NCBI GenBank assembly: GCA_008632985.1
Contig: QPGO01000143.1
Location: 62,001-126,000 of the forward strand
Reading direction: 5' to 3'
DNA: 64,000 bases
Origin: Psammoneis japonica
Lineage: Eukaryota
The translations under genes and the position numbers were made by a program. This document shows, one piece after another, positions 12,385-46,712 of this stretch. A model generated the notes under the pieces. The model saw nothing but the letters and a program-made list of their open reading frames with translations, ran no database searches and was not told where the DNA came from. Position 1 is the first letter of the stretch. Each line of letters starts with the position of its first letter.

Positions 12385-13150
12385 AGGGCGACAGCAGCAG
12401 CAGCAGTAGTGACGGCGACATGAGGGACAGCAGCAGTGAGGAGGAGTCAAAGCCATCACACAGTGGCCGCTACAGCAGCAGCAGCAGTGCCGTCCTTCAT
12501 GCTACTTTCTTTCTCGTGGCCATTGCCACTTCCATGGCAGCTGCCCTTGCCCTTGCCCTTGCTGCGCTTGCTCGAGCTGCCACCCTTGCCCTTGCCACTG
12601 CTGCTGCAGTGGCCACTGTGTGATGGCTTTGACTCGGGCGCCAACTCCTCACAGATTGACTCGGTCCTGTCACAGACTGACCATTTTTGTGGAATCTTGC
12701 TCAGTCACACCGCTGCCTTTCATCATCCCAAACTGGAGTTTGCCAAAAGTCTCACTTCCTGCCCCCCAACCTGAACCCCAAACCCCAACCCTGACAGTGC
12801 AAAACTGTTTTTTCTAAATGCTGGGATGCAGAAGTGGCGAAGTGGTGTGTGTTGATTCAGTCATGGGTTCCTGTTTTTGACTTGATCTGTGACGGGCACA
12901 AGCCAATCTGTCAGGGGTGTTTTTTCCTCCAGGAAGAGCTTCAAATGATTTTTCCAAGCTTCTGTTGAAAACATCGCTGAAGGATGTTAAAAGCTGTCCT
13001 TCTTTTGGCAATCGAGACCCACTTTTCTTCATGCCCCACCCCCAACAAACCAGTCGCACAGTGCACATTTTTCATTTCATTGCAAAAAAGACTGGATTCT
13101 CGTGTCTCTCCAGGTGCTGCACATGCAAACATCAATGAACAGAGCACTCT
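12385..13150. pseudogene. Rearranged, hypermutated tandem copy of the 11749..12186 gene
   Basis: 12385-12487 is a direct copy of the mid-CDS, about 12487-12635 is an inverted copy of the 3' CDS, and about 12926-13150 is a direct copy of the stop codon and 3'UTR. TA has been replaced by TG or CA. Confidence 0.85.
12645..12917. mobile_element. Degenerate MITE-like insertion inside the pseudogene
   Basis: Imperfect TIRs cctcacagattgactcggtcctgtcacaga / tctgtgacgggcacaagccaatctgtcagg. It separates two parts of the gene copy. Confidence 0.55.
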
Positions 13151-16100
13151 TGCTTGTGATTTTTTAACCGAAAGCAATGGCACTAAAAATGAAGCACTGG
13201 ACGACAATGTGGGAGCAAACACTGAACAGTCATTTTTTTGCCCATTGCGCACAACACAAAAACAGCTGAGTGCCATCATCACGGTTTGATGAGATGCCCA
13301 TTGAAAAGAAATGATCCACAATTGTGGTTGCTTCCTCGAAACAGAGCACAACAAATGCTGTGTCTGTCTGCATCACATTCCTGTCTCTGTTGGCATGCCA
13401 TTGTGTTGAGTTTGTGGGCTGGCATCTGGCCTTGTTTGCTCTGCTGGTGACTGCAATGGACACCCACCCCTGTTCTGCCTTTGTGACACCCAGATCTTTG
13501 TCAGACTCCTCCTCTCTGGAAACTGAATCTCAGAAATGTGCTGCTGAGGTGTGCTCTGAGCTCTCTCCACCCGGCACCTTGTGACAGGCACTTTTTGCCA
13601 GCCAGCCAAACTTCTTGTTGAGTTGTCGCCACACAAAAAAGCTGATGGTTGTTTCACATGACTCTGCTGATGCACGCATTTGTGACATGATGTGCAAAAA
13701 GCCCAAACCCAAGAAAGTGCATGTTTTGCAAGATGCAAGCTTGGCTGCATGTTGCCATGCAAGCATCTTGCCAATGACAGATGGAGACCCACACAAAGCA
13801 CTCCAAAAAGGGTGCTGCAGTGTTGATGACATGAGCACCTTCTTTTTGAACCTTGTTGCAACAATTTTTCCACAGATTCTCTCACAACATGTGTGCTGCA
13901 ATGGCCTGTGATTTTCACCACTGCCAAAGAAAATGCCCATGTTGTGTGCTGCACTGTCTGCAAAATGAGCATGCTGCATGATGCACAGAGGCATTGTGGC
14001 CCAGCTTGCTTTCTAAGGAGGTTGTCCTTCAGGGCTCAAAACACTGAAGCGTGCCATGCCAGCTCTTTTGGCATTTGGAAAAAGCAGGGGCAAGTGAAGT
14101 GCCCCACTGTGTTTGCTGCTTTCACAGCCCATTTTTCAAAAATGGTCTCTTGTGTGTGTCTTGCTTTGCAGCCACACATGGGGGCAACAAAAGCGTGCAC
14201 AGCACACGAAGCAACAACCTCCCTCTGTCTTGCTCCAGAACAGCACGCAGCTCCATTTGCCATGTTGTTGCTTCTTGGCTTTCTGACAGAGACAGACAGT
14301 GAAGTTCCCACTCACACTTGCTTGGTGGCATGGGGGAACACACAAAAAAAAAGCTGTTGCAAGCTTCTGTTCCCCATGTGCAGCACAAAGTTGTGCCCTG
14401 GGAAGGTCTTCTTTGACAAGTGTGGAGACCAAAACAAAAGAAATCTGTCTCCAAGCAATCCAAACTGCCCCAACTGATGCTGCCAGCAACCAAGGCAGTG
14501 GCATCATGGTTTGCTTGCAGCTCTTACAAACCAGCTTTTGCTGCTCAGTTGTTGACAAAGAAATGACGAATGAGGAGATGCTGTGTTGAAGGCATGCTTG
14601 GCAAACAGCTGGACAGTGGGCCTGTTTGGCTGCAGCCACAACTCATTCAGTTGTGCTCAGGCAAGCCACTCATGATGAAATTCAAAGGAGGTCAATGTTC
14701 TGCTGAGACAGCTTCTTTGACTTTTTTGCAAATGCATGTGTGTTGCCAGAGACATGCGTGCCTTTTTCCTCTGCACTTTGCTGGAAAAGCAGGTTGCTGG
14801 AATTTGCCTGGGACCCTCTGTCCTCTGTCCAACAAAGCAGTGCTTCCGGCACACTTGAGCTGACCCACCTTTGTGTGGCACTCTTTTGCACATTGTCAAA
14901 ATCTTTTGCTGAGCAGCAAGAAGAGCAGCTCTCATGGTCAACATGTGGTCATGGTGGATGGTGGCAGCACTTGCATGTGTGTGGTGTGTGGACAACGCAA
15001 AAACAAATCATGAAACCCCAAGCTTTTGCTTTGCCATCAGAGAAGCAGCACAGCAAGAGAGTTGAGGCCAGTTTGACAATGTTTGGGGCACAGAAGCAAG
15101 GGTGGAATGACACACTGGCGAGGCAGCAACCCTGCCACAGTGCCAGCCATTTTCTCCAAGTGCTCCTGCTGGGCTCACCAAAGCTTTTAAGAACACCATC
15201 GCAAAGCAGCCACCAGCCACACCATGACTGGCCTTGCTGGAAGTGCTCCTCATGTGACTTGCAGCATCACACCAACTTGGAATCAGGCTGGTTGGGATTG
15301 GGGAGGTGGTGGCAAGTGCCAGCAGGGCAGGGCAGGGACGGACGACAGTTCAAAACATGCGTGGAAACCAACTGTTGCACAGACAGACTGCCACTGTGAA
15401 ACCCGCCCCCGTGTGCCCACTGCCCATCATGATGCTGAAGTGTCAATGCCGACAATGGCAAGAACAACAGTGTTGGTTCCAGGCTGTGATGCTGCTCCAT
15501 CTTCAGCACAAAAGCAGAACACACGCACAACAAGACAAGGCTTCTTCATCATGACAAGCCTCCTCGAAGGTGTCCCAGGAGAGCTCATCCAGAAGATTCT
15601 CATCCTTGCAGCTGATGACACAAAAACATTGCAGTGGTGTGAGCAAACGTGCAGAACCCTGTGTCGAGTGGCCTGCAAATGACATGATGTGGAAGCATCT
15701 TGGCAACTGTGGGGAGTTTAGAGAGGATGTCTGACTGCAGTCCAACCACGGTCATGCTTGTGTGGTGAGTGCATGCAACATGATTCGCAGGGAGCAGAGG
15801 AGGGCAACAAACATGCTCACAGACAAGCTTGGTGTGGTTGGATGGCATGATCTCCTCTTCTTGTTTGTTTCAGCCAACCACTGCCGATTCCAGTTTTGAG
15901 GTGACACCATGCTCTGCACATTGCAGAGAATTCAATTGAGGTTGCGGAGGCCACTGGCTTGCACCCAGTTTTGACAAAATGGAATTTTTGGCATTGTGCT
16001 TGTTGTTGCAGGAGTTAAAAGTGGATCCCAATGGGTTGAAGCATGGTGGTCACTTGTTGACTTTAAATTGTGAACTGGAAACACTGGGTGACAACAATGC

Positions 16101-19100
16101 CCTCCTCTGTGAACGCATCATTTGTCGGCTGCCCCACCATGCTCAAGAAGTCAGCAAAGCCAAGGACCAGCATGAGTGCAAAGGCAATGTTGACATGGCA
16201 GAACTGTGATTGCCAAGAAGGAGGAGTGTGGCATTGTGAGCACATCTGATGACAAAAGTGAGTGAGTGAGACCTGTGGCAATGTGCAAGTGACAGCGGTT
16301 TGGCAATTTGAAGATGACGATGTGATTCAACTGATCATGAAGTTGCGTCACAGTGCTTGGTCTGAGGTCATTGGTGTGTTTTCATGCACAGTGCCAACGT
16401 CTCTGCTCATGCTCATGTTGCATCTTGCCAGTTGCTTTGCTTGAGTCTCCATTGCTTTGAAGCATGAGATTGCTGATTGAGCGACACAACATGGGTGCTG
16501 TTTGAATGTTGCATGTTCCGTTTGCTGTTGCTGCTGACATTTCTGGTCTCCTTTGTTTTAGCTCTGGCCAGAAACCAAGGCAATGAGTGCCACCTCTGCT
16601 GGAATGTGTTGACAGCGCCTGTTGCAAAGAGTGCTGTCAGTGTTGATGAGGATGGCCTTGTGGTGAGTTGGAGTTCAACAAGTCGTTCATCATCCCAAAA
16701 GAAAAGTCACGTTGCAGACAGGGCAATCAAAGCATGTTGCAATCACATCAATTGCTCCACATGGGGGGTCTTGAGGATGCTGTCACTGTGTTGACACTGC
16801 CTGCTTCAATGACTCCATTTGACCCAATCAAGGCAAATGAAATCAAACAATGTGTGCATGGATTTAAAAAAATCCAGTGTGAAGAGTGGTGCTGCAAAAG
16901 TGGTCCTTCTTCATTTGGGTGTCAAAGACATGCAAACACATTCATCACACCCCAGCATGTGAACTGCAGAGCTTGCAAGTGGAGTTCTGTGGGCCCAAGT
17001 CACATGATGGAGTGCTGCCCAAGGCTGGAGCTCATTGGCAGGGGGCTTGCATCCACATGATGCATGTCATGTGCTCTGTGCACTTTTTTGTGGCACTGCT
17101 GCTTGCTGCTGTGATGCTTCATGGTGTGCAATGGAGGTGGCAAGTGAGCTTTGGTCCAGTGCAAATGGGTCCAGCAGGGTGTTGGCTCCTCAATTGGGTG
17201 GATGGAGGCAGGCATGCAGGGGAGGGGGGGGCAAACAAGCAGCAGAGCTGCCAATGCTGGGGCCATGTGGGGTGGTCCAAAAAACTCACAATTAAGATTT
17301 GAAGCAAAGGCCAGGAGTCAGGGCATGGCAGGCACACTCTAACTCCAGGTGGGGTGCTTTTGGAGACATTCTAAAAAAGAGCTTGTCAAAAAAGCAGCAT
17401 CACACAGAGAACAAAGATGTGCATGTAATTTTGCCCCACCACGGGGGCAAAACTTGTCAAAATTGAAGGAGGGCTGGTTCAGGTGCACATGTGATCTGTG
17501 CCGGGTGGACGACTGTCCTTAGAGAAGGGAGAGCTCTGTTGCACAAAATTTTGCAATGGCAAACTTGGGCAGATCTCATCATGCAAGTGAAAGAGCAGCC
17601 TGTCAACACCACCTCCTTTTTTAAAAAAGATGCCATTTGCTCTTTTGTCATTCCTGCCAGCTTGAAGATGCCACTGCCAGCTCTCGACAGTCACTGTCTC
17701 AGAGCAGAGCCACCAAGAGATGTGGCACCACCCCTGGCGGGCAGTGTGTGGGGTGTGGGCTTTTTTTCATGCAGCCAATGCCTCTGCCAATGTGGGTTTG
17801 AGCACTGCAGTGGAGCTGATTTGCCACAAACTTGGCCAGTTTTTGTTGTCATTTTGTGGGGGAGAAAAGCATTTGCTTTGAGGATGATGATCCTCACTCA
17901 TGGAGGGCTTTGAGGATGATGACCCTCACTCACAGAGGGCTGCCCAGACTCAATTGCCAAAGGGAGCAACAACCAACCCAACCTCAAGAAATTTCATTTC
18001 TCACTCTTTTTTCTCACTCTTTGTCCTCTGAACAATGGGGTGCAAGAAGAGCAACAACCAACCAGTGGCACTGAAAAATGCAGCATGAGCTGTCATTCAG
18101 TTTTGCTCTTTTCCTCACTCCCCACACCACAGCTCCAGCCCTTGCACAAAGAAGCTGACCACATTTGTCAACACACACACTGCACTCTTGTGCACAGCCT
18201 TTCCCACGAGGTGTTGGCTGCTTCGCACTTGTTTCTTGGCTTCTTCTGCAGGAGAACATCCTTGATTGGGTGCTCAAGAAATGGAAAATGGGTGTTGCAC
18301 AAAAGGCACAGCAAACAATTGTGGTGATGGGACCGCACACCATGTGGTTTTGGAGCCAAGTTCTTCCCACCCAGTTCCTGATGGGCTTCATTGCTGCAGG
18401 AACTTGTGAGTTTGATGACAATTTTCTCATTTGCATCCTCTTGTCAGCCAAGAAATGTGTGCTCAATGGGTTCTTTGCAAACAAGGCCTCACAGAAAATC
18501 TTCACCTTGATGCCGTCATTTTGCATTGGAGGCTCCTTTGGAGTGAAGGCTGAGACTTGACATCCTCCTCCATTGGACTTGTGGCAGCAATGGATTCTCC
18601 ATGCCAGCCAATCATGCAGATGCTAAAAACTGACGCACAAGGCATGCAAAGGCAACCCTGCTTCAGTTTCAGGTGTCATCTCTGTGGGACATTGACAAAA
18701 GAAGGCACATTGGAGCCAAGTGGTTGCACACAAATGCAGCCCCAGACAACCCCATTTCTTGGCTCAAGACCTTGAGCATCAACCAAGGACAACAATGTGT
18801 TTTGAAGGATCATCCTGCTGGCCTGCCCAGCAGCAAACATGCAGCAACCAGCATTCTGGAGGTGTGGGCCTGAATCCCCTTTTCCCTTCTCATTCTCATG
18901 CTTCACATTGAAGAACAAGAAATCTTGTCTGCTTGACCCATCTGGGGGTCTTTGGTTCCAGATGCTTCTCTTGCTCTGATGCCAAGGCCCAGCAGAGTGG
19001 CAACGCATTTCTGCAGAATGGCACTGACAATGTTGTGCTGAGCATTTTCCAATGTGAAGCCATGGGGCATTGTTGTGACCAGCTCTGTTTGAAGTTTCCA

Positions 19101-21141
19101 ATCAACAGCCTCTGGTGAGCTTGTTTCTAAGATGTCTGAGATTTCTGTGCAAAAGTGTGGTGCATGAGAGATGCACTTGTCAAAGATTTCCTGCTGGTTG
19201 AAGACAGAAGATGGTGTGCTCTTGTTTCTGCTGCCAGTGAACCCAGCTGTCTTCCTGGCCAGTGTTGGCAACTGTGAATGCCAAAGGTGTTGGAAGGTTG
19301 TTGAATCTCCTGCAGTCATCACACTTTTGTTTTTTTGCTCCTTGTTTCTGAACAAAAGCCAAAGAATTTCAATGCAAAAAAGCTTGTTTCCCAGGGATGC
19401 CTCAACAATTGCTTCCTTCATTTCTTTCATTCCTGTCAACACCATCCCATTGTTCCTGAAACACTGCTGTGACAATGGCTTGTTGGCAAGATTCAGCTCC
19501 ACCAGACAATCGGCAAGCTCTTTTTGTGTTTTTTGTTCCATCCACACATCTTTGAATGTGTGCTCTGCTGCTTCCTTAAAGTCATGTTTTTGACAAAGTC
19601 TCCAACAGCTGGAAAATGACAACAATGACAACAACACCATCTCCCTCCTTTTTTCTTGTTTCAGCGACCCTGGGTGTGTTTTGTGCAACTTGTGCATGCT
19701 GCACCCACCTTGCCAACATTTCTTGGCCTGTCCATCATCAGGGATTGATGACCTTCTCCTGCATGTGTTGCGAAGTCCACTTGGAAAGACACCAACAGGT
19801 GCAGCACGGTGCTTTTCACAAGTTGATTGATTGCAAGGATCACTCAAATGCAGTGAAGCCATTGCCAGTGCATGCAACAACATGTCCACATTTGTTGCCA
19901 GCGCTGACAAGGTGATCATGATGAGCCATGTTGGATTTAGAGAAGAGGAGCTCAACGGCATTCGTGGCCTCTGGCTGAGGCTGCCTCCTTCAAAAAGATG
20001 GTGCCAACACTTTGTTTTGTGTGCTTGCTTGGTCTTGGTGCCAATGCCTGCTGGTTGTTGTGCATTTCCATCAACCTCAATTAATTTGGTGCCACCTTGC
20101 ACCACTTGTTGCCTGCCAAACTGCCAAACCAGCATCTTCCTTTAATGTGCAATGTGCCTTTGCTCATTTCATGGGCTTGTCCACATTGTTCATTGAGATT
20201 GCTGCAGAGCTGCTGACAAAATGGGAATCATGGAATTGTGCTCAGGATTTCAGAGCAAAATCTTTGCAACAACCTCAAAGGGACACCGCGGCCTTGCAAT
20301 TTCCCCAACACAGCAATTTGGCTCAGATTCAGCAGTGGGCAAAGGAAGTGAGGGATTTGGCACCCATGGTTGATGGCCAATGACCCCTCCTTGAAGCACT
20401 TGAAGGCCACAAGCTGTCAAAGAGAGTGCACAGTGGAGCAAACAGAAGTTGCACACTGGCTCTGCAGCATGCTGCAAGTGGCAGATGTGAAGTGTTGGAG
20501 ATGCATGTCATTGCCTTGTTGGTGGCCATGGCAATGATTGGTCAGATTTTCTTGTTCCTCTCTCCCAAAAAGCATCTTGCAAGGTCTCCAGCAGTTTCAG
20601 AATGTGACATTTCATTGTGTGCTCTTCCAGCTGTTGAGGCTCTTTTGGCGCAACTGCAACAGAAGATTTCACTCCCTTTGGCAATGCCAAATCAGAGGCA
20701 ATGCACTGCATGTCTTGTGGTGGTGCAGTTGTGCCAGGTGGATGAACATTGAGATCACCAGCACTGCAGCAGTGAAGAGATGCCTTTCTGTTGGTCCACA
20801 TTGCTTCCTGGAGATCTGCAAAATTGTCAAAAGGCCTTTTGACCTTGACCTTCTTCTCAAAGTTGTCACTGGCACAGACTGTCACACCACACCACATCTG
20901 CTGCCATGGTGGTCCAATGGAGTCCAGCATGGTGTGGCAGAAAAGTGAATTTCTGCTTCATCTTTGACACAAACTTAACAACACATGACAACAATGGTCT
21001 CTGCCATTTGATTCTTTGTGGATGATGATGCACAAAACCAAAACCACTCATCACTCTGTTTGTCTCATCTCTTGGCTTCAAAAAGGCCCCAAAACCAGAG
21101 CATCTGTGTGTCTGAAAGACCACCCCAACTTTTAAAATTTC

Positions 21142-21143
<2 letters not shown>

Positions 21144-21183
<40 letters not shown>

Positions 21184-21265
21184 CGTCGTCGCTGTTGTCA
21201 TCACTGTTGTCGCTGTTGTTGTCGCTGTTGTCGCTGTTGTTGTCGCTGTTGTTGTTGCTGTTGTC
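21144..21265. repeat. (TTG)n / (GTC,GCT,GTT)n trinucleotide microsatellite
   Basis: About 13 pure TTG units followed by degenerate gtcgctgtt units. Would read as poly-Asn/Asp/Ser on the minus strand. Confidence 0.9.
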
Positions 21266-24200
21266 TACAAGTGCATGGATGAAATGAATTTTTTTCAAAA
21301 TTCACAGAAAGGAAGGGCTTCACTGGCATTGGTGACACCAAATTGCACCACACAGTGTCAGTGGGTGGTGCTGCATCCTTGAACCATGGGGCACCACAAA
21401 CTGAGTTGGCATGTTTTTTTTTTCTTCTTTGGCATTCAATCAGTGGCAGTGGCTCATGACACAACAAAGTTGGTGGTCATGCACAGAGTCAAAAGACAAA
21501 ACAGATGCCTGATTGACACAAGGCCAACCACACCCCCCACAGGAGGAGGCTTCTCTTGCCAGCATGCTGTCACCCACTCTCTGCTTGGGCTCATCCACCA
21601 CAGCATTCCAAGTGTTCAAGTTTTTCATCTGTTCATGGCAAGAGAGACACCATGTTGCACTTTCAATGTTCCTGCTGTCTTGTGCTCTGTTTGGCCCATC
21701 ATTGCACGCAACAGTCTTGTTGGTCTTCCACTTCTTGTTGTGATGATTGCCTGTGTCATTTCAAACAAGCACTCAATTTTGCCAGGGGGGAAAGTTTGTC
21801 AACCAGTTAAGATGATGTCACTTGTGAACTCAACAACACACTTGGATGAGTGGAGTGCAGGCAGGGACCAGCCCTGATGCACCAACACAACCACAGTCTT
21901 TTTTTCACCATGCAGGGCAGCAACAAAAAGTTTCTTTGCAAAGTGCAAGCAACTGCATTTGTCTTTCATTGTCCAATGCTTCCAAAAAGAGCTGAGCTGC
22001 AACCACAGTGGGGCCAACAGGGAGCTGGGAGTTTTGACCATCAGATTGTGCAAAGCAACTCTTGTTGTGCTGAGGGTCTCCAGCCATTGTGAAGTTTCTT
22101 CATTGAACACTTCTGCATTTGACAAAACTCTGACTGACTTTTGCATTCACTGCCACTGTCAAATCTGCAAAAAGACAACAACAGTCCATGTTTTGTGTGT
22201 GCCAGCTTTTTGTTGACTTCTGACCACCACTGCACTGCTGTTCATGGTGCACACTGGATGTTGTTGCTGCTGCTCAGTGGCCATTTTAGAAAAGTCTCAG
22301 AAAAGCCCCTGAAGTCATGACAGAGCTGCAAGGTGCAAGTGCAGCTTGCCAGAGCCATCGCTGGATTGCTTGCTGAGCTGCAGCTTTGTTCTTTGTGCAA
22401 TGCTCCCAAGCCAATTGGAGAAGCATCAGATGCAAGCACCACATGGGGTTGCCAAAGATTGTGCCCAACTCTGAGCCACCCCCACTTGCCTTGTGTGCCA
22501 CACATTGTGCTGCCACATTTGCAAGGCTTTTTGAGAGTGGAAAAGTTGGGCTGAAGGGGCTGGTTGCAACAGGATCAATCAGCACAAGAAAAGGGGGATG
22601 CAACCCCACACCAACCATTGCCATGCAAGGCAGCTCCATTGTGCACGTTTTCACAAGGACAGAGACACTTGTTTGCAGCCACCAGCTGACCTTGGGTCCA
22701 ATGAATCTGCAGCACATCCCAGAGCCAATTTTGGGATCTGGAAGAATCATCACTGCATCAACTTTCAAAAAAGTCAGCCAGTGTGCCACCAGCAAGACCA
22801 CCTAAGTCTTGAGTGGCAACACAAAAGTTTGGCAGGCTCTTGAGTCAGAAGAATTTCACACCCATGTCTCTGTCATGGTCATCACTGCTGTTTTGTTGCC
22901 CCCCATTGTCACCACCCATGTGACACCACCTCCATCAACCCTGCTGCTGCCACTGCTTTTACCACCACAGCCATTGGCTTGCTGTCTCCCTTGGAACTTG
23001 TCAGCCAAGATGCGGCTGCCTTGGTTGACAGCCACAGTTTTGAGTGGGCTGGGTCAACTGGGAAAATGCTCCATTTCAGGCAGTGCTGAAGCTTGGTTGG
23101 TTCCGTCAAGAAGCTGTTGCTGTTGGTCAGGTTGCTCAAATGTGGGAAGCCCTGCTGCACATTGTGAGAACAAAAAACACTGCAGAGTGCACTTTAAATG
23201 AGTCTGCCTGCCATGTTGTGGCTTGCTGTCTCATGAGCAAAATGGTTGCTGCAAAAGATTGGATTTGAAGAAAGAGCCATTCGGCTCATGCCATGTGATG
23301 TGATCTGGAGTTGCAAAAGGCTGGAGTGCTGGCCCAGTCATGCTGCTGGCCTGGATGCAAGAAAGAAATGGACAGATGTGACAATGAAAAAAAGATTGCA
23401 AACCAAGCAACACAATGTGACAAGACATGAGTGTTTGCTGCAAAAAAGATGTGAGCTGTGTCTCAGCTCATGCCAATCTGAGAGGTTTGCCAGACATGGT
23501 CTTGAAAGACTTGAAGACAAGCAATCTGACAGCTCCCACACTCTCTTCTCAGAGATGGAGCTGCCCCTCTTTTGGAGGTTTGCTTGCTCCAGTTTCCAGC
23601 AACAACAGTGGAATTGGCAAACAAAAACAGCACACAAAAGCAACAGTTGACAACAGATCCTCGAGCTCATTTTGATGTCAGTGTTCAAATTGTTGCCAGC
23701 AAAATCACACTGCAACCCAAGTCAAGAGAACTTGGCTGGTGGGCTCACCTTGATGGTGAGATTCTTGTGGCTGACAATCTACAACATGGAACGAGCCAAC
23801 TGTGGCAGCTGCAAAGAGTCAGAGTGTTTCGGCCATGTTGTCAGGCACACAGCAAGCAAACTGACAAACAAGAGTGGAAAGAAATGTGCTCCAACCTGTT
23901 CTCTGGGTTGAGCAGCGAGTTTCACATTTGTGACTGAGTCAGTCATCAGGATCATCAAATGCTTCCTGCCCATTGTTTTGCACTCACAACACCCATGTGC
24001 ATCCAAGGAGGATCCAGTCCCTTGACTGGTGTGCATTTGCTGGAGAGAAAGCTTTGGAGCGAGTGTGTTTGTCTGCAGTGCTGTCAGACTCGCTCCATGG
24101 TGTTGACAATGCTGGCAGATGATGAGTCAGGCCAAGCAAGTGCATGATCAGTGGGTCACATGAGAGTGTCACAGAACAGCAAACTGCGGCACTTTGTGCT

Positions 24201-24899
24201 TGGGCTGCGCTTTGGCTCCATCTGCTGTGTGTTGTGTTCGTGCTCTAAACTTGGCATCTTTTGGGGTTGCCACCACACATGATGTTTGGTTGACATGAAG
24301 CAACTGAAGCTGGACTGCCTCCAATCAAAATCACATGCAACCAATCGGACCAGAAGCCCACACCTTTTCTTGCTCAGAAGCACTGCCCGCCAGGGGGTGC
24401 TTCGACTCAAGCGTGTGGGGGCTCTCAACCCCGCTGTGAGTGCTCCTCAGTGCGCAGGTTCAAACCATCCATTTGACTCTTTGATGTGTCTTTCTTGCTC
24501 TTTCTGTGTGCAATCAGATGCAGACTATTTTTCAATCTTGTTGGGCCAAGCAATTGCAGATTTGGCCACAGTCTCTGTCATTTTCAAAGTTTGTTTTGCA
24601 CACTGTGTGATCAAATCCTTGCTGCAGCATTGTTTTCCTCCAATCCACTGCCCACCAAGATGAAATGAGATGTTCCATAACCAAGAAGCGTTCTGCACCT
24701 GACAAGATTGGTGGCACTCATCTTGCATTTGATGAAAGATGGCAATGTGGAACGAAGCAAAGAAAGGGAAAAGTGAAAAGAGGTTTGTCACAAAGCCTTT
24801 AACTTATGGGCACTGCGCAATCCCAGCAGTCCGCGCCGTAGACTTCTACGTGTCTCTCACTGTCGCGTCATCGTTGGGGGTTGGGGGCCATCATGGGCT

Positions 24900-24984
24900 C
24901 ATGGCACAAGTTTCACCCATGATAAGCCTCTTCGCTTGGGGGCACCAGCATGGCACAAGTTTCACCCATGATAAGCGTCTTCGC
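24900..24984. repeat. Two-copy direct repeat, period 49 bp, at the right edge of domain 2
   Basis: catggcacaagtttcacccatgataagc(c/g)tcttcgc at 24900 and 24949. Confidence 0.85.
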
Positions 24985-25510
24985 ATGGATCAAGTGCGTC
25001 GCGAGGTCAGGTGTCTCAGGCACAGGGAGTCTCGCGTAGACGGACTGATGACAAGCCCGCTGCATGTCAAGACTTCACAAGACTTTGTTCTCCCTCGCTG
25101 ATGCTGCCATGCAATTCCTGTTGAAGTAAAGTATTTATTCATCTTTTAATGCTATTTTTCTGAGACAAAACATTCATGCTACCGGTACATTGCATGATGT
25201 TGGACGTGCACTACTGGTAGTTCAACCTTCCACAGAGATTCTGAGTATTCCCATTCAGTGTCCATCCCCGGAAGTCACTTAAAAATGAAGATATGAAATA
25301 TGAAATGGAAATGTTCAAACGTACGCCGGTGAGGCTCGGCTCCTCATCACCATTCCCAATGCACCCTACAATAACGACACGAGATGAAAAGGTTCTGTTC
25401 AAACAGAGTCTGGTCTCGGCTCCCTCTGCCTGTCCACAAAACAAACAACAAGTTATACGAAACGAAAAAAGAGTCCTCTCCCTCTTTGGTTGTGCCATTG
25501 TCACACGATT

Positions 25511-27276
25511 TTACTTTTCCCAGTATGCAGCGTATCGGGTTTTGCCATTGGCAACAGCACCCGTGACAGCGCCAGTGGTCCAACCGTTACTGATCCTATT
25601 ATTCCAGTGGGTTTGGTATCCTCCACCGGTGAGCCGTGCTTGGCAAAGACACTAGGCATGGCCGAGGAAGCCCAGATTGCAGAGTAGTAAATCGATCCGT
25701 TGTGCTCGTAGCTGTTGAGGTATATAAGACGACGGCCAGCTGCCTTGTTTGCATTAAAGTTGGCTTGATACTGTGCCGAGCTTTGAAAGGACTTGGCGTG
25801 CCAACTACCGATGGAACCCTTGGTGTACACGGCCGCGTATACAAGAACCCCATTGACAGACGTTGGAGAGATGACTCGGGGACGCCAACCGGCTTTTGTC
25901 CAAGCGTTAAAGATGGCCTGGTGAGCCGCCGCAGACTTGTCGTGGTATGTTAGTGTTTGGGGTACGGATGCGCCCTTTTGGAAGATTCCAACGTAGCGCA
26001 CATTGTTACCGACATTGTAGGTGTCGATGTGGACCAGTTCAAAACCCTGTGCACCATAGGCAATCTTCTTTTGGCTCAACTGTGCCTTGGTCAGACTGCG
26101 GTGAGAAAACCAGGACACACTTGGATTCTTGTTGGGATGGTATACGACGTTGAAAACCGCCTTGCCATCTCGGCCAAAGCCATCGTTCCAGTCCATGCGG
26201 TAGCCGCAAGTCGATGCTGCGTTGAAGTCTTCTTGAAACTTGTTGTCCGCAAGACCGTGACGGGCATACTCTCCCCAACCAGGACGAACTAGCGGGACTT
26301 TGTACAAAGTACCGGCAACGAAGAACTGATTTCCTGGAATACCGCAAATGCGGGGAACGCGGTTCTTGCCCTTGATGTAGCCACCGGCGGGTATAATCGG
26401 ATCAGAGAGATCGTCTGGAACAGCAACCTCAAAATGAAGGTGGTCTCCACTAGCACAACCAATGTCGCTTTCAATGCCAATGAACTGTCCAACAGACACC
26501 TTGTCTCCGACCGACAGTCCGGCATTGACACTGGCACTGTTCTGTGCGAGATGGCTGTACTTGGTCCACTCGCCGTTCTTGTGGGCAATCCATACGTAGT
26601 TATTGTTCTTGCAGCCGCCATTCACATTGTGTGAGTCTTCAATGAACTTGATCGTGCCACTCTGTGCTGCGACGATCTCGTAGGGTCCGCCCGACTTACC
26701 GGACATATCAATTCGATTCTTTGGGGTGTGAGTAAGGTGGTCACGATTCACCCTGACAGTGACACCGGGCTGGTAGGGAATGGCATAAAGTCCCTTCGAA
26801 GGGGGGCGGTGGCGAGGACCCCTTATGACGTTCCCGAGAAGCGGGTTCTCGCGGTCGATTTTACGAATAGGTAGCTCTTTCAGTTGGCCAGATAAACTGT
26901 CAGATTCATCCTTCCATGTCCAAGTTAAAAAAGTGTGCGAGTTCAACGGAAACAAATGAATGAGCGAGTGAGTCAACCAGGGAAGAGCTCTAAAGAAGCT
27001 CACACCCAAGCGCTGCAGTACTGTACTTGCGAATGATAGACGGTACTTACCAGAAAATCTAGGTTGCCTTCATTTGCTTTCTCGATATCAAATGTCACGT
27101 CACGCTGTGGATTGGCATAAAAAGAGGCTGTTAGTACAGCAGGGGTTGTTTGGTCATGGTTGCGCCACGCTCAACCCAGACGAGAAGCTCACCTTCCGAA
27201 GCCCTTCTGCATCTTCCGCTGCGGTAGAAGCGGTGAAGAGGAAGATCGTGATTGTCAATGCTGCAATCGTCTTCAT
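25511..27276 (-). CDS. Secreted M23 metallopeptidase with C-terminal bacterial tandem repeats (BTRD1/polyglycine-hydrolase-like); 2 introns, frameshift near 25630
   Basis: Signal MKTIAALTITIFLFTASTAA; introns 27192-27105 and 27050-26911. M23 motifs HTPKNRID, KYSHL, GDKVSVGQFIG, GDHLHFEV. Five repeats of about 50 aa such as WHAKSFQSSAQYQANFNANKAAGRRLIYLNSY…YSAIW; the last repeat ends …TRYAAYWEK* in a shifted frame. Confidence 0.85.
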
Positions 27277-36458: not shown

Positions 36459-36571
36459 CTACTTATATGAAGAGCAGTGCCTATGCTCTATGAAGAGGCA
36501 ATTGGCGATGAATGAACTCGATGATGGCATGTTGATCGGCTCTCGAGCACACAAAGTCTTGCTCGACTGAC

Positions 36572-37378: not shown

Positions 37379-38271
37379 TCAGTCGGGCCTTCATCTAGAA
37401 ACAGGCTGTCACAAAACAGACAGCAAAGTCAACACCAATCGCAACTGTTAACATTTGGCCGGCACATACAAGGCCCCGCAAAAAATGGGAAGACATGCTG
37501 CATGACCGCACGATGCACAGACTCACGGTCTCGTCACGGTCCGTCGGTGCGTGCGGGTGGTGATTGCGATTGGCTCCACTCCCCGCGCACATTCTGGAGC
37601 CTGGCTTCTCTCACCACATGTCCATGTTTGATCGTCCCTTGCAAGAAACTAGCATGAATCCACCACACGGTGAAAAGCAAGGATGACCATTTTCTTGGCG
37701 TCAGAAGGCCCGGACCTTGACCATGCTGGGGGCGGCCGAAGAAGAGCACACATTGTCTGGCGCTCTTGCTCTGGTTTTGTCACATGGCAGCAAACCACAG
37801 ACAGAGCATACATCTTCTGCAAGTTGTTCAGTGCTGCCGCGGTGCAGAGTAGTCTTAGCCACTTCAAGAGAGGGAGGAAAGAGGAAAGCAGATCAAATCT
37901 GGAAATCCAAAGAATGATCCAAGACTGAAACCAATCCTGGTGCGACATATTCGCGACAAGCAGCACACACACACGTCATTCTTGGGGCTTTAATGTTTGG
38001 CTTTATAAATGTATTCAGAGCCTTAGCATATGAATGAAAGGTCACGCGTCAGCGACGAGTCATTTAAAATAGCTGGCATTGGCATAAAAACTCGATAACG
38101 GTGCGACGCAGGCTCACAACGTTGAAAATATTTGACTATGAGCAATATATTCGTTTCTTCTTTAAACACGAGGGTCATTAAAATGGTCATTTTTAACTAT
38201 GCATTTCCAGCTATTATGCCTCCACCTTCACGGGTCACAAATTGTAACAATTTTGGATGACTGAAGGCATA

Positions 38272-38590
38272 CTACGAATTGCTGAACAATTGCGCGATAC
38301 ACGTGCCCGAGCGGTGATTGTTGCTTCGGGCACGAAATTCGAGCTTCGCGCACGTAGAGACCGTAGAATATGTACCAGCATTCGAGAATGTCCGATTTGT
38401 GTAGAACACGTAGCACCGTACCACAGAGGTCATTTCATGAAATTCCCGTGACGACTCATACGACTCCAATGGTATTTTCAATACCATATGCTATGTAGAA
38501 TGGACATCTGCGCGAACGGTGATTGTTGCTTCGGGCAACGATATTCGAGCTTCGGGCACGTGTATCGCGCAATTGTTCAGCAATTCGTAG
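38272..38590. mobile_element. Intact 319-bp MITE (Tc1/mariner-like), 39-bp perfect TIRs, TA target duplication
   Basis: CTACGAATTGCTGAACAATTGCGCGATACACGTGCCCGA at 38272-38310 and its exact reverse complement at 38552-38590; TA on both flanks. Confidence 0.9.
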
Positions 38591-38714
38591 TAGATGATGG
38601 TCAATGCTCCTCGTTTTGTTGCAACAGTATCGTGGTTGAAAAAGTCGTTTTGCTCTGGCTGCGAAGGAAGGAAAGCACTCTTAAGCCTCATCAGGAAAAC
38701 TCTGATCAACGAAT

Positions 38715-39649: not shown

Positions 39650-39925
39650 CGACTGCCGGTTCGTATGTTGTGTATAGTGCTTTTGGAAGTGAGTTGTAAC
39701 TAGTTGGAAGTATGGTATATCCATTCCACCTACTCTACTAGAGTCATTCGTTATGCATGATTTCGACGATACCCGATATAGCTAGCTGTATTCTGTTTTT
39801 ATTTCTTTTATAAACAAAACACCAAAACCGGTGCCGCGTATGCATTAGCAATAATGATATCTAAGTGGTAGCGAAGGAGAGCGAGTAGCTCTTGAAAGGC
39901 TCTGTAGACCTGCTTCCAGAGCCAA

Positions 39926-40687: not shown

Positions 40688-41262
40688 GGTGTTTTGAGAA
40701 GTTGTGAAAAAGTGGGAGACTTGTGATTTTTCTCGTTTTACAGGAAAATGCTCCGTAGAACAGAGAGCCAAAGTGTGTGAATGTGTGAGTGTCAGAAACA
40801 AGAAGTTCTGTTCATGTATGTGCTCCCATGAGTTGCTTTGTTCTGTTTTTTCATGCCGTTGCGGTATTGGTGTGGGGGACCAAAGCTCTGAAGCTTTTTT
40901 CTCAAGACCACTTTGTCGAAATTACATAAAGGAAGCTTTTGATGTGAATCTCGTAATTATAGAAACGACGATTGTGCTTGAAGATATGGTCATTATGTCG
41001 TTTCTTATCGCGATCGATTGTTGCGTTGATGGTTGGGATGATGTTCTTTGTTTAACAGTAGTCATTTCAGCGTCTGTCCAGAACTTGACATCTAAATATT
41101 TCAGTGTAATTGGAATGTCTATGTTGTGACCATATTTAGGGGGGAGGTCATCTGTTCGTCTGTCCAAAATCCATGATTGCCTAATTATTTCATTGTGATG
41201 GAAATGTCCCTTTTGTGACAGCTTTTTGCTCGAGCGAAGATAGAATGTGACTCCAGACTGGT

Positions 41263-41444
41263 TGAATGAGATAGGCACATGTACTCTATGGCCGAGTGTG
41301 CCCTCTCTGATGTGTGTACATTAACTAACGCATTAGACATTCAAGAAGCCGTTAGAAGTCAGTTCCGATCAGCGATTGCACTGATCGGGTCTCTTCTCGG
41401 TTCTCTCACAACTTTTGTCAAGTCATCTCAAGCTAGATCTTGCA
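41263..41444 (+). repeat. 5' LTR
   Basis: tgaatgag…tcttgca; 15 mismatches to the 3' LTR by manual alignment. Confidence 0.95.
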
Positions 41445-41890
41445 CTGCAATTGCAGTCGTTGTTGTGGCTTGTTCATTGCATTGTCAACTTTATGACAAC
41501 GCGAAGAGTGTCATCGAGAAGAGAGAAAATTTGTTTGCGAGCTCGAGCAGAAAATTTCATTCGAAGTAGATCAGAATCGCAGTGCAATTGCACTCGTGAA
41601 ATTGGCGATTCGGAGCAGCGGTTGTTTGAACTCGAAGCTCGTGTTGCCACCATTGAATTCGTCATTGTTTGATTGTTGATTGTTCTCGTTGTGTGGATCA
41701 ACTGGGAACGCCTTGTTTTGTTTGTCTTTTGTGGATTGTTGATTGTTTGATCGCTGAAATTGTTCATCGCCATGTGTCAAGAAGCCTTGGAGAAAGCCTG
41801 TGTTGAGCATGAGACCAAATTCGTGGACTCTGAATTGCAGGAGGTGAAGCTCACTCAAACCTTTTTGATTGTGGCACTAAACTTTCAAAA

Positions 41891-42952
41891 ATGTGTCCTG
41901 TTTTCACAGGAGAGCATGGAATTGAATCATTGTTGCATGTGGAGGACAGGTTCCGGAAGGTGGCAAGACAGCTGGATTGTGATGCCGGAACAGAGTTGTT
42001 TGATGCTTTCCAGGATTGTCTCCAAGGTGCTGTGGAGGTGAAATGGCAGAACATTGCTGCGGGTGTCCAACAGAATCAACGGACGGCAGCTTGATTTGAT
42101 CAGGCTGTCTTGGCCTGTCATCCACGCTGCGTGAAACTGACAGCTCGTGACACAATGAAGATGCATTTGCCTGCTTGCAAAAAGCCTTGCTCAGCAGAAT
42201 CTGAAACTCACATTGATCGCATGGAAACATTGTTCCATTGTGCTGGCCGTTTGCCTGGAGCCGTTCCTGAACTTACAGAGCAGGAGCAGAAAAATGTCAT
42301 CTTTTGTGCCTTCCCTTTGACCTGGCAGCAGTCCTGCATTCGTGCGGGCAAGAACCTTGTCACGGATTCTATGGCAGACATCCAAGCCTGCATGAGCAAC
42401 GAGAAGGTGTTCGCCAATGGTCAAGACAACAAGAAACGCAAGTCCAACAATGGCAATGGAGGGAACTCCAGCAACAAAAAGGGCAGCCGTGACAAGAAGG
42501 ACAACAAGGGCCAACCGAAAGCAAATGATCCATGTCCGGTCCCGTGGCACCATGGAAGGCACACATGGGGCCAGTGTTGTGACAACCCAAACAATCCTGA
42601 CTGTCGTGGGCCTCAGAACCGTGGCGGTCGAGGAGGAGGCCGTGGCGGTGGAGGTCGTGGCGGAGGTCGTTTCCAAGGAGGCCGTGGTCAAGGCCATGGA
42701 GGCGGTGGATGCTTTGGTGGTCATGGCAACCAGAACCAAGGAGGTCGTGGTGCCCATCATAACAACAACAATGGACATCAGAACAACAATGGCAACCAAG
42801 GTGGTGGTCAACATTGTTGTGGTGAAAACAACAACCATGGAGGCCAAGGACAGGCCAACGGATGTGCTGCTCAAGCAGACAATGTGAACAATGACAACCA
42901 GGCTCGAGAAGCTTCTCGTGGTGATGTGCACCATTTTGACATGATCGGATGA
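41891..42952 (+). pseudogene. Gypsy gag relic (start approximate)
   Basis: Zn-knuckle-like CPVPWHHGRHTWGQC and RGG/Asn/Gly-rich tail; in-frame stop at about 42092. Confidence 0.7.
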
Positions 42953-43274
42953 GGCCCTCCAAGATGCGGAGGTGTGGTGAGGTTTCAGCCAGATGGGCAG
43001 TTTCCTCGGCAGTTCTGAGAAGAAGGAGCTGAGTGCTCCAGAGCTGAATGCTCCCAATTGCCTGTGAAAGAAGCATTTGTTGATGAAAATGATTGTGTTT
43101 TGCCTGAATGAAATGATGAATGTTTTGCTTTTGATTGTTTTGAAAATCCTGACGAATTGTTGCCTGTTGAATTTGAAAATGCTGCAGAAAATTACATGAA
43201 TGAAGAGGGGGTGTGTTTGATCAAGACGCATTTGAACACAACATTCCTCTCCCCAAAATGAACTTGCAAGTCTC

Positions 43275-46200
43275 GTGCACCGCGTTGGTCCCATCTACAC
43301 TGCTTGTTGCAAAATCAATCCAACAGATGAGTCGAGTCGAGTGATGCGTGTTTTGTTAGATTTGGGTGGTTTTCACACTGTGATCTGTCTCAAGTTTCAC
43401 CTCGAGGAGCCGTGCCATCTGTTGATGAACATGGAGTCCGAGCTTTTCAAACCATGGCAGGTCCTTTCCAATCGGGTCATTGGGTGGCCTTAAACTGGGA
43501 GGATTGACGGCTGTGTGGCTCACGCATTCGATGCTCCGTGTGCGCATGACATCATTTTGGGTCAAGATTTCTTGGACAAGATTGGTCTCAACCTGAGCTA
43601 CGATGCAAGGATGCTGCGATGGCTGGACCGTGTGATCCCAATGAAGGAACCTCGTCATTGGTCCAAATCCTGCAATTGGCATGTGGCTTTAGACCGAATG
43701 GATGAATTTGATGAAGATTGCAAAGACGAGTCGGGCTGTGGGTGCGACGACGGATGTGACACCTGCACGCTCGACACCAAGCATGAAGCAACGAATCCAG
43801 TGGAAGTGGTTCGGAACTTGGACCATCTCACGGAAGAACAAAAGAAGAAGCTGTCAGCGGTGTTGGAAAAATGTTCAACTTTGTTTGACGGAACGTTGGG
43901 GCACTGTCCTCATGAAAAGGTGCACCTTGAAGTGGACGAAAATGCTGTTCCACATCACTCAAAACTGTTTCCTGTTGCTCGAGTTAATGAAGAAGCGCTC
44001 AAAAAGGAATTGAAGCATTCAGTGAATCTCGGCACACTTCGACCATGTGGACCTGCGGAATGGGCAGCCGGTGCCTTTGTTGCTCCAAAGAAGGACGGAC
44101 GAGTGCGATGGGCATCCGATTTTTGGGAGCTCAACAAGGTCCTCAAACAGAAAGTGTGTCCTTTGCCAGTTGTTCAAGATGTGCTGCAGTGGAGAGCGGG
44201 CTACAAATTCTTCACGAAACTGGATCTCACTGTGCTCTACTGCAATTTGGAGCTGGACGATGAAAGCAAGGAGCTCGCTGCGATTGCAACTCCGCACGGG
44301 AAATTCCAGCATTGTCGCATGGCCATGGGATTAAAGCCAGCTCCAGATGTTGCTCAGTCCATTGTTGAAAAGATTCCACATGGTTTGGATGTTGAAACTT
44401 ACATTGATGACATTGGCGCGTTTGACACTGACTTTGATTGCCATCTCTCTTGTCTTGACAAGGTGCTGCATCATCTCAAGGAGAATGGTTTGAAAGTCAA
44501 TCCATCAAAATGCGAGTGGTGTGTTCAAGAAACCAATTTTCCAGGGCATTGGCTTGCTCCAACTGGTGTTAAACCATGGAAAAAGAAGGTCGAGGCGATC
44601 CTGCGAATGCAACCTCCACGGAACACTACACAGCTCCGATCGTTTCTCCGTGCAGTGACCTGCTGTCGCAACATTGTGGCCTCGCCGTTCTCACCTGCTT
44701 GCACCTCTGACTGAATTGACAGGCAAGAGTCAGTTCCAATGGACAGAATCATGTCAGAAAGCATTCGAGGAGATGAAGGCAGTGATCACGGCAGAAGCGT
44801 TGATGGCCTGCCCTAACCACAACCCACCTTTCCATGTCTGCACCGATGCATCAGACTGCCAGATGGGTGCCGCTGTCATTCAAGATGGCAAACCTGTGGC
44901 GCACTGGTCTAAGAAGCTCTCGGCGGCTCAACGCAGCTGTTCAACAATGGAGAAGGAACTCCTGGCCGTCGTCATGTGCTTCAAGGAATTTCACTCAATG
45001 TTGCTCGGTGCTGAAATCACTGTTCACACTGATCACAAAAACCTCACCTTTCGCACTTTGAATGTGCAGCACGTCCTTTGTTGGTGACTGTTCCTCAAAG
45101 ATTTTGCACCTGCATTTGCGCATGTCGAAGGCAAGGACAACGTGCTTGCCGACTGTTTTTCTTGTCCACCACGCATGGATCTGCCTTCGGAGGGAAAGAG
45201 CCTTGGGCTGAGCAGCAAACGCAAAGGAAAAATTGTTCATTTTGAAAAGTTGGATTCCAGGGAACTGAGCAGGGCCGAGGAAGAGGAAGATTTGGAGTTG
45301 GGCGCTTGCAGGTTCAAATGTTGCCGTGCTCCTGTTGATCCTTCTGATGAGTCTCACACCGCCTTTTCCTCTCTGCTTGACGAGCCCAAATTGTTTGAGT
45401 GCTTTTTGAATTGCCCGACACTGGACGAAATGCAGAATCCCACTGAGACACCAAGGATGCAACAGTTCCAGTTCGAAGACCTCCAACTGAACCAGCAAAG
45501 ACAACAAAATCCGCAGCAGTTTGTGGTCAAGATTGTGAACCATCATCCCCTGATTTGTTGTCGTTTGCATCTGAATGATCCACCTGGAGCCTGGAAAATT
45601 TGCGTTCTTGCTGCGTTGTTGCCGGATGTCATTGCGTGGCATTGTTGTGCATTGGGCCATTGTGGAGTCGTGCGATTGCATGAAAGTGTTTGGACTCACA
45701 TGTGTCATCCTGCATTGCGTCGACGTTGTAATGAATTTGTTTGCGACACATGTCAACGATTTAAACAACTGGGTCCTGGACATGGAGAATTGCCTCAACG
45801 TCAAGCGCCATCAGCTCCATGGATGGAAGCAGCAGTTGATCTCATTGGACCGTGGAAAATGCCGATTCAAGATCAAGAGATTGAATTTAGCACTCTCACT
45901 TGCGTTGATGCTGTCACTGGATTGACTGAACTCGTGCGCACTGACAACAAAACTTCTCAGCATGTGACCAACAAGTTTCGCAATCTTTGGTCAGCTCGTT
46001 GTCCCAGACTGAATCGATGCATCCATGACAATGGTGGAGAATTCATTGGTTGGGAATTTCAAATGCCACTAAATCAAGCGGGCATTGCTGATGCACCGAC
46101 GACATCTCGAAATCCTGCAGCCAACTCCATTTGTGAGCGAATGCACCAGACGGTGGCCAACATCTTGTGCACTGTGGTTGTCGCCAACCCACCTTTGAAT

Positions 46201-46600
46201 GTTCAACAGGCTGAGTAGATTGTGGACGATGACCTTGCTGCAGCCTCTTGTGCTTTGCGATGCTCCCACTCAAGGTCTGTGGGTGTTTCAAGTGGAGCTC
46301 CAGTGTTTCAGCGTGATGTGATTTTGGACCTGCCTGTTGTTTCCGACCTTGCTGCAATGCAAGCCAACCGACAAGTGTTGATCGACGAGAACCTGCGACG
46401 ACAGAATGCGAAGCGCCATTCCTGTGATTATCTGGTTGGTCAAGATGCGTTGGTCAAGTCGGTGGATCCTTCAAAGTTGGAAGAACGAGCCCATGGTCCG
46501 TTTCGAATTGTGCAAGTCCACGCCAACGGGACTGTTTCAGTGCTGTGAGCACCGCACGTCATTGAGCGAATTAATGTTCGCCGCGTGGTGCCGCATCGGA
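43275..46600 (+). pseudogene. Gypsy pol relic (protease, RT, RNase H, integrase)
   Basis: VLLDLGG and DIILGQDFL (PR); KKDGRVR, TKLDL, TYIDD (RT); TDASD, EKELLA, TDHKNL (RNase H); H-H-C-C, VDLIGP, HDNGGEF, ERMH, GPF (IN). Carries stops and frameshifts. Confidence 0.9.
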
Positions 46601-46712
46601 GTTGAGGGTTTCTTCCCAACGTCTGGGTTCCCTTCTCCATGCGCATTGGGTTTGAATTTTAGTCAAGTGGTTCCAATGGTGCGCGTGTTCCTTGCGCCAT
46701 GGAAGGGAAGAG

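Follow-up and report, generated by a model that had tools for sequence, protein, structure and literature searches.

We propose that four blocks of what is likely to be silenced selfish DNA in the diatom Psammoneis japonica have been remodeled by a process that acts at the level of DNA, is specific for the dinucleotide TA, and converts A:T to G:C pairs in a way that depends on the flanking bases. The window analyzed here is a stretch of 64,000 nucleotides (assembly GCA_008632985.1, contig QPGO01000143.1, positions 62,001 to 126,000 of the forward strand; coordinates below are those of the window), and it consists of gene-dense eukaryotic DNA of 43–53% G+C whose genes include those for RING/PHD, bHLH-PAS and M23 peptidase proteins and a lipase-GTPase fusion. 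One of the four blocks, D2, is the interior of a Ty3/Gypsy long terminal repeat (LTR) retrotransposon, and the others are designated D0, D1, and D1b (Table 1). The surviving TA dinucleotides, the replaced residues of conserved codons and the differences between the two LTRs together show a rule that reduces mainly to one statement, namely that the A of 5′-TAY-3′ becomes G on either strand while TAA, and in particular TAAA, resists (Y is a pyrimidine and R a purine throughout).

The blocks stand out by dinucleotide composition. The observed-to-expected ratio (o/e) of TA, calculated per kb, is normally 0.3–0.8 in the window and falls to 0.01–0.14 inside the four blocks, where the mean o/e of TG and CA is 1.46–1.98. 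With the domain limits set from the TA positions at their borders, the frequency of TA is 0.0414 in the background and 0.0013–0.0052 in the domains, TG reaches 1.50–1.74 times background, and CA reaches 1.43–1.50 times background in D0, D1, and D1b and 1.11 times in D2. The loss is limited to TA, as AA is barely changed (0.92–0.97 times background, and 0.77 times in D1b, the smallest domain). The initial annotation of this DNA covered positions 12490 to 46712, and D0, which lies outside that range, is a fourth TA-poor domain. Apart from two matches at chance level, none of the 95 open reading frames (ORFs) of at least 90 amino acids in D0, D1, and D1b has a Pfam domain, and within D0 the count is 0 of 20. 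D1b and D1 have a repeat in common, and the summed contig depth of D1b at 28439–29077 is ∼3988, compared with ∼58 for single-copy DNA, where depth was summed over the Logan contigs of a public sequencing run, X1, that is apparently from the same strain.

The TA dinucleotides that remain in the domains are distinguished by their neighbors. The background for this comparison was the TA-normal DNA of the window (41,012 bp, 1,700 TA), after removal of partly affected LTR flanks from a full set of 1,717 TA that included 269 YTAR and 519 RTAY sites. The 77 survivors in the four domains divide into 49 YTAR, 27 mixed, and 1 RTAY, against 11.8, 41.8, and 23.4 expected (chi-square p = 6.6e-32), and the probability of finding at most one RTAY among 77 is 2.6e-11. 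Survival relative to background is graded, from 0.54 for TTAA and 0.40 for CTAA/TTAG through 0.096 for GTAA/TTAC, 0.064 for CTAC/GTAG, 0.030 for ATAG/CTAT, and 0.027 for both ATAA/TTAT and CTAG (the latter with one site found and 37.7 expected) to 0.013 for ATAT, and it is zero for ATAC/GTAT and GTAC, of which 128 and 76, respectively, were expected. The initial annotation had proposed from a count by eye that RTAY is eliminated and YTAR (TTAA, CTAA, TTAG) is spared; both parts hold, but CTAG, the remaining YTAR, is not spared. Its counts were close to those obtained here: about 28 TA in the Gypsy interior (14 YTAR, 11 YTAY, 3 RTAR, and no RTAY) became 27 (14, 10, 3, and 0), and about 30 YTAR among some 37 survivors in what is now D1 became 29 of 36, accompanied by 5 YTAY, 2 RTAR, and no RTAY. 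There is likewise no RTAY among the 12 survivors in D0. An independent baseline, drawn from metagenomes and comprising 37 related Gypsy loci (139,421 bp, 7,529 TA), gives the same ranking of 4-mers for D2 (p = 6.8e-6), and hence the residual contexts mirror neither the window background nor that of the element's relatives. The base at position +2 matters as well: A is found there at 0.53 of survivors and 0.29 of background sites, and within YTAR the effect is significant (p = 1.6e-4), so A at +2 is protective, and no effect on TA survival was seen at +3 or +4 when survivors were compared with background. Survivors typically lie at the junctions of T-runs and A-runs. A multiplicative rate model with two flanks was tried and rejected, as CTAG does not fit it.

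Conserved codons show which adenine changes and in which direction. The three pol frames of D2 were aligned with 60 homologues to which they are 43–59% identical, and Tyr makes up 0.43% of their residues compared with 3.89% in the homologues, while Cys is 2.6-fold and His 1.43-fold enriched. In 25 columns, Tyr (codon TAY) is the residue in at least half of the homologues. Where the preceding base is C or T, 10 have become TGY (Cys), three keep TAC, and none is His, and where it is G or A, nine have become CAY (His), one is Cys, and two are Phe. Four further columns with Tyr in the homologues, in a decayed coding remnant within D1, read gCAC, tTGT, gCAG, and aTGC. Taken together, a preceding pyrimidine gave 11 TG and no CA, and a preceding purine gave 2 TG and 11 CA (Fisher p = 3.2e-5). 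A second and independent test of direction is provided by codons that begin with A. Conserved Ile, Met, and Thr codons, in which A is followed by T or C, have changed to Val, Val, and Ala, respectively, in 15 of 63 columns, and T precedes 12 of these 15 but none of the 39 that are unchanged. By contrast, none of the 49 columns with conserved Asn or Lys codons, in which A is followed by A, has changed to Asp or Glu (p = 1e-4 against 15 of 63). The products in D0, D1, and D1b agree, with an excess of 503 for RCAR plus YTGY versus 197 for RTGR plus YCAY (p = 3.8e-5). These domains have lost 374 mixed-class TA and 373 mixed-class CG, and if CpG decay feeds both product classes equally, nearly all of the product derived from TA would be of the TAY type. 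The rule seen in the duplex thus reduces mainly to a single-strand rule: RTAY is wiped out because it presents TAY on both strands, and YTAR survives because it presents TAY on neither. RTAR and YTAY present it on one strand only, and in YTAY it is the top-strand A, followed by a pyrimidine, that is changed.

The loss of TA is mutation in place. The retrotransposon has the features of a Ty3/Gypsy element, with LTRs that begin with TG and end with CA, a CTGGT duplication and the order reverse transcriptase, RNase H, integrase, and its summed depth of ∼2600–4000 in the run X1 contigs, against ∼58 for single-copy DNA, indicates a family of tens of copies. Its two LTRs are 91.9% identical; their BLAST alignment (span 41263–41447) has 185 positions, of which 15 differ, and 10 of the 15 fall within the 22 columns with a present or former TA (Fisher p = 1.4e-7). 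As LTRs are identical at insertion and these now differ mainly at TA, the change arose after insertion, and at two sites CA in one LTR faces TG in the other, so that a single ancestral TA must there have been changed twice independently. The same pairing is seen between D1b and a second contig of run X1, with TG in the window and CA in the contig at 28982–3, 29061–2, and 29112–3. Comparison of the Gypsy element with its other copies in the run X1 contigs gave 1,346 variable places, at 235–316 for each type of transition and 22–43 for each type of transversion. Change is far more advanced in the interior and the 3′ LTR than in the 5′ LTR. The signature is not limited to the element in the window, as shown by the missense pattern of P0088, a Gypsy pol of 751 amino acids from another record with only 0.8% Tyr: at 20 conserved-Tyr columns it has 9 Cys, 6 His, 3 Tyr, and 2 Phe, whereas four ordinary homologues keep 22–25 Tyr.

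Paralogous copies within the window show what is spared. At the left edge of D1 a mutated copy adjoins its TA-normal partner at 11924–12380, and TA in the one is replaced by TG or CA in the other, with GTTAAAAGC retained; the initial annotation's observation that GTTAAAAGC is the same in the normal copy (12140–12400) and in the TA-poor copy (12900–13175) and that nearby TA is replaced was confirmed. In D0, a fragment has TG or CA at nearly all of the TA sites of its normal partner at 61337–62172 (minus strand). Both partners keep normal TA, the genes that flank the domains are normal in TA, and the domain borders are sharper than 200 bp. The 508-bp gap in the alignment of the D0 pair was at first considered an intron, in which case the mutated copy would be a retrocopy; this was dropped, as the gap corresponds to an inserted element with terminal inverted repeats. 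An inverted-repeat element of ∼320 bp between D1b and D2 is present in many copies (depth ∼3189) and yet is TA-normal, and so copy number alone does not draw the mutator. The 508-bp element likewise has a normal TA content. Hence, the process acts on whole domains and not on every repeat. The decayed coding remnant in D1 belongs to a small family (P0140–P0142) that lacks Pfam domains in the part that matches, although P0140 has a weak kinase-like C-terminus. In addition, two regions, 60200–61400 and 37380–37950, have TA o/e values of 0.18 and 0.25 and elevated TG and CA; RTAY is still present, the context rule is not seen, and the dips may stem from a partial effect on this DNA or simply from its coding composition.

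The same domains have also undergone CpG decay. In the three older domains, D0, D1, and D1b, CG is at 0.17–0.37 times background, and in D2, the young Gypsy copy, the losses amount to 87% for TA and 23% for CG, so that TA decays ∼8-fold faster per site. CpG decay is therefore slower than TA loss and separable from it in time. Diatom transposons are CpG-methylated by way of DNMT5a (PMC9998398), and decay of CpG at 5-methylcytosine (5mC) in such transposons would share both the domains and the TG and CA products with TA loss. Because the two kinds of decay coincide in their domains, we infer that the targets are heterochromatic islands marked by 5mC. The conversion of TA to TG or CA removes TAA and TAG, and a new stop can arise only from an existing one (TAA to TGA); the domains therefore stay open in many frames, with TAA and TAG at 3.9 and 1.7 per kb (both strands) inside them versus 18.3 and 17.0 outside. 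A TTG/TCG trinucleotide array within D1 (21124–21278; GTT/GTC repeats, in 11 registers of a 56-nucleotide reference) is possibly derived from a TTA- or TCG-containing repeat that was reshaped by the two decay processes.

Table 1. TA-poor domains, the Gypsy retrotransposon and related features of the window (compositions are relative to background).
Feature	Position	Strand	Description
D0	2630–6070		TA 0.08×, CG 0.31×, CA 1.43×, TG 1.53×
D0 fragment, ∼330 bp	3715–4045	+	paralogue of TA-normal 61337–62172 (minus strand); 83% identity, two blocks
D1 left-edge mutated copy	12382–13150		copy of adjoining TA-normal 11924–12380; 73–83% identity by self-BLAST
D1	12504–24799		largest domain; TA 0.07×, CG 0.17×, CA 1.47×, TG 1.60×
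Decayed coding remnant in D1	18942–19574	−	phmmer E = 2.2e-28, 39% identity; residues 190–400 of ORF 18906–20141
D1b	27840–29339		small domain; TA 0.03×, CG 0.37×
Inverted-repeat element, ∼320 bp	38270–38592		inverted repeats of 41–53 bp; TA o/e 0.77, 11 RTAY
Ty3/Gypsy LTR retrotransposon	41263–46894	+	RVT_1, RT_RNaseH_2 and rve in that order
Target-site duplication	41258–41262, 46895–46899		CTGGT, 5 bp, intact
5′ LTR	41263–41444	+	182 bp, TG...CA ends; 9 TA
D2	41570–46736	+	Gypsy interior; TA 0.13×, CG 0.77×
pol reading frames	43494–44711, 44659–45084, 45088–46215	+	source of conserved-residue tests
3′ LTR	46713–46894	+	182 bp, TG...CA ends; 3 TA, partly affected
MITE-like (miniature inverted-repeat) element, 508 bp	61466–61973		terminal inverted repeats; inserted in TA-normal paralogue; TA o/e 0.53, 22 TA

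How might such a pattern arise? In the mechanism that we favor, a mutator would act on silenced islands of LTR retrotransposon, repeat debris and pseudogenes, and would convert the A of 5′-TA-3′ to G on either strand, so that each TA step would end as TG or CA. The flanks of the target adenine would set the rate, with a pyrimidine at +1 (TAY) as the main requirement and A at −2 probably of further help, whereas TAG would react slowly and TAA, above all TAAA, would be nearly refractory. At the chemical level the adenine would be deaminated to inosine, which is read as G, and without the creation of new stop codons genes would be killed by missense changes, Tyr to Cys or His and Ile to Val. From the sequence alone, an enzyme with sequence specificity appears to be the best account of the pattern, and the initial annotation's preference for such an enzyme over general GC-biased drift is supported by a loss that affects TA alone, is graded by the flanks, is directional and postdates insertion. 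That the process is DNA-level, TA-specific, and context-dependent we think likely; that its chemistry is adenine deamination, carried out by an enzyme whose preferred context is TadA/ADAT2-like, we regard on its own as a roughly even call. Context-dependent repair or DNA structure could also contribute to the pattern.

Several observations weigh against this account. CTAG has been lost to a far greater extent than expected from a simple product of two half-site rates that takes its values from TTAA and CTAA (∼11 predicted, 1 seen). The product-class test is null in D2 (61 vs. 47, p = 0.93). In the old paralogue pairs, by our own reading of the alignments, about eight events fit TAY and five are contrary, with ancestral states that are uncertain because the identity is only 73–83%. 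Within RTAY, CA is favored over TG by 11 to 2, so that a further preference is needed, be it for A over G at −2 or for C over T at +1. In the ATAC/GTAT duplex it is the A of ATAC that has changed in eight of nine cases (p = 0.04), a result that either preference would give. The three Tyr codons that are kept are nevertheless all YTAC, which speaks for the preference at −2 and against the one at +1. On the coding strand of D2 the frequency of TG is 0.1125 and that of CA is 0.0832, compared with 0.068 and 0.074 in the Gypsy relatives, whereas TG and CA are nearly symmetric in D0, D1, and D1b; the D2 excess of TG may be ancestral to the element, the outcome of a strand bias or in part a product of RNA editing. 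The relatives served as a product baseline for these strand totals only, their shifts in composition (4-mers with A first down, those with G first up) being as large as the signal. None of 80 related loci in metagenomes has a TA o/e below 0.39 (range 0.39–0.96), in a search that was biased against mutated copies, as one of its two patterns required Tyr. Lastly, the available text of a mutation-accumulation study of Phaeodactylum reports a GC-to-AT bias and does not contain the term TpA.

Some alternatives retain an enzyme or a DNA-level change but assign the pattern differently. The lesion might fall on thymine, with T converted to C at 5′-RTA-3′ by thymine modification or by excision and misinsertion. 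A>G and the complementary T>C are indistinguishable by sequence, and the results for context, Tyr columns, A-first codons and products fit this mirror chemistry equally well; we nevertheless consider it unlikely, as we know of no thymine-directed transition mutator with such a context and the sole experimental precedent, in the rhizarian alga Bigelowiella natans, was attributed by the authors to adenine deamination, which is itself unproven. Or the enzyme might require TA alone, with the flank pattern imposed by the sequence context of I:T (or G:T) repair or by the mechanics of the DNA. Base flipping would be hindered at junctions of T-runs and A-runs such as TTTAAA, and it is there that survivors sit, with A enriched at +2, and the loss of CTAG is at odds with a simple half-site model. 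However, the direction of the product at Tyr and A-first codons tracks the neighbor of the changed adenine on the same strand, which is predicted by the footprint of an enzyme and not by a property of the whole duplex, and we therefore give this alternative little chance.

A change that does not originate in DNA is less probable still. A-to-I editing of transposon RNA that is then fixed by reverse transcription would, as editing of sense RNA, make TG outnumber CA on the coding strand of D2 and may contribute there, but the LTRs now differ mainly at TA, in both directions, the CA products (9 His at Tyr codons) require changes on the other strand, domains without any trace of reverse transcriptase and a host-type pseudogene are also affected, and AA, in contrast to the targets of ADAR, is not depleted; as a general explanation editing is thus very unlikely. 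Elements might instead have evolved to avoid TA, for example in response to a UA-cutting RNase or a TA-directed nuclease. The mild TA deficit across the window (o/e 0.3–0.8) and in related elements (0.39–0.96) would be in keeping with such selection, yet invariant Tyr residues of pol have been replaced (20 of 25 columns by Cys or His and two by Phe, with three kept), and noncoding debris and pseudogenes are affected too. Selection is contradicted by the post-insertion origin of the LTR differences and by the conserved-Tyr results, and we regard it as highly improbable. Much the same can be said, with even greater assurance, of an artifact of sequencing or assembly in which modified bases in heterochromatin are miscalled. 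Run X1, whose library type is not on record, may be the assembly's own source. On the other hand, 55% of the sampled 31-mers of the TA-poor Gypsy element are present exactly in the Logan contigs of that run, unique DNA matches those contigs with 1–2 differences per 1.5–4.3 kb, and P0088, from a different record, carries the same signature. A strand-symmetric miscall would not yield stable, context-dependent TG or CA, and the B. natans process was observed with Illumina data.

Two of the neighboring genes deserve comment. On the minus strand at 25501–27069 is an intron-less ORF of 522 amino acids that combines peptidase M23 with four polyglycine-hydrolase-like BTRD1 repeats, a pairing that is unusual for a eukaryotic gene and that may have been acquired horizontally. 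On the plus strand at 54840–57938 is a single-exon ORF of 1,032 amino acids in which a class-3 lipase is fused to a GTPase (MMR_HSR1/RsgA-like). Among named proteins, its best relatives come from the pennate diatom Seminavis robusta (43% identity); other relatives are found at 43–48% identity in other diatom-like records, with one further protein at 78%.

If the favored reading is right in outline, its consequences extend beyond this window. Dead elements would still encode long 'proteins' that are poor in Tyr and rich in Cys and His, and a defense of this kind would shape the transposon landscapes of marine protists and the ORFs predicted from them, with decoy frames that reach the protein databases. 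A saturated footprint in a diatom suggests that such a defense is widespread among marine protists. The rule itself (T at −1, a pyrimidine at +1, TAAA refractory) is a fingerprint by which candidate deaminases may be chosen. To our knowledge no natural DNA adenine deaminase has been firmly established, and one would also be of interest for base editing. As a bolder proposal, which we hold only tentatively and think more apt to fail than to hold, diatoms, and perhaps stramenopiles, alveolates and rhizarians as a whole, might have a 'reverse RIP' (after repeat-induced point mutation), in which a natural DNA adenine deaminase derived from TadA/ADAT2 is guided to methylated heterochromatin. The erasure of TAY sites would then disable transposons, integrated viruses and trapped pseudogenes by missense changes, with no stop codon being formed, and the footprint of lost TAY and refractory TAAA would be the fingerprint of the enzyme, to be expected among the Bigelowiella mutations as well.

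Among known systems, RIP of ascomycetes converts CpA to TpA, mutates both copies of a duplication and yields DNA that is rich in TA and in stops. The process described here resembles it as a defense-like hypermutation of transposons, by transitions at one dinucleotide and with a footprint that covers whole domains, but its sign is the opposite: TA is at 0.03–0.13 times background, CA and TG are at ∼1.5 times, TAA and TAG vanish, and frames stay open. The partner copies at 11924–12380 and 61337–62172 are also untouched, although the stretches shared are just 0.3–0.5 kb and a length threshold is possible. ADAR tolerates a 5′ U or A, favors a 3′ G, and acts on double-stranded RNA, whereas here AA is not depleted, TAG is slower than TAY, and the changes arose in resident DNA after insertion. 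The initial annotation had named Pol eta and TadA-type contexts for comparison. The WA motif of Pol eta includes both TA and AA as targets (WA>WG), and it fails, as in the three large domains AA is at 0.92–0.97 times background and TA at 0.07–0.13 times. The TadA-type context fares better. The natural substrate of TadA and ADAT2 is RNA (the wobble base A34 of tRNA), the loop recognized by bacterial TadA is U-A-C-G, and in eukaryotes A34 is edited by ADAT2/3 when the next base is G, A, or C. Like TadA, the process here has T at −1 (TA alone is lost, and T precedes 12 of 15 changed A-first codons and 0 of 39 kept ones) and strongly prefers a pyrimidine at +1, a resemblance to the loop that is one of mode and not of membership. 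For C at +1, as in the TadA loop, the signs are divided, with ATAC ahead of GTAT in eight of nine cases and yet all three kept Tyr codons being YTAC.

The closest known case is the TpA hypermutation of Bigelowiella, which like the process here changes only TA, to TG or CA, in selfish or foreign DNA. The first account of a natural mutator that changes A:T to G:C at a single dinucleotide of selfish DNA dates from 2026 and concerns that one rhizarian alga, without an enzyme or a flanking rule. According to that report, 230 of 231 mutations in B. natans mutation-accumulation lines were A>G/T>C, all at TpA and in an integrated giant virus and virophage; the genome has clusters poor in TpA and rich in CpA and TpG that are enriched in reverse transcriptase and DDE domains; the process is not repeat-induced, as even a region present once can be hit; and an ADAT2 homologue was proposed as the enzyme by Mettrop et al. 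(10.64898/2026.01.13.699255). The words 'trinucleotide', 'flanking', and 'diatom' occur nowhere in the text of the preprint, and the TAY/YTAR rule is therefore not stated there (10.64898/2026.01.13.699255); nor did we find in the literature any report of TA-specific hypermutation in diatoms or of a flanking rule. Features of the Bigelowiella type are present in the window, with transitions confined to TA, clusters in which TpA is lost and CpA and TpG are gained, and targets (the Gypsy element, high-copy debris and pseudogenes) that are flanked by genes with normal TA. The hosts are from different branches of their supergroup, B. natans being a rhizarian and the diatom a stramenopile. The B. 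natans footprint is partial, with a Rho TpA of 0.45 for the virus (10.64898/2026.01.13.699255), whereas that of the diatom is near saturation and lies on CpG-decayed domains. Our results thus support the view that the process in the window is of the same kind as the TpA hypermutation of Bigelowiella, now with a target rule that can be read.

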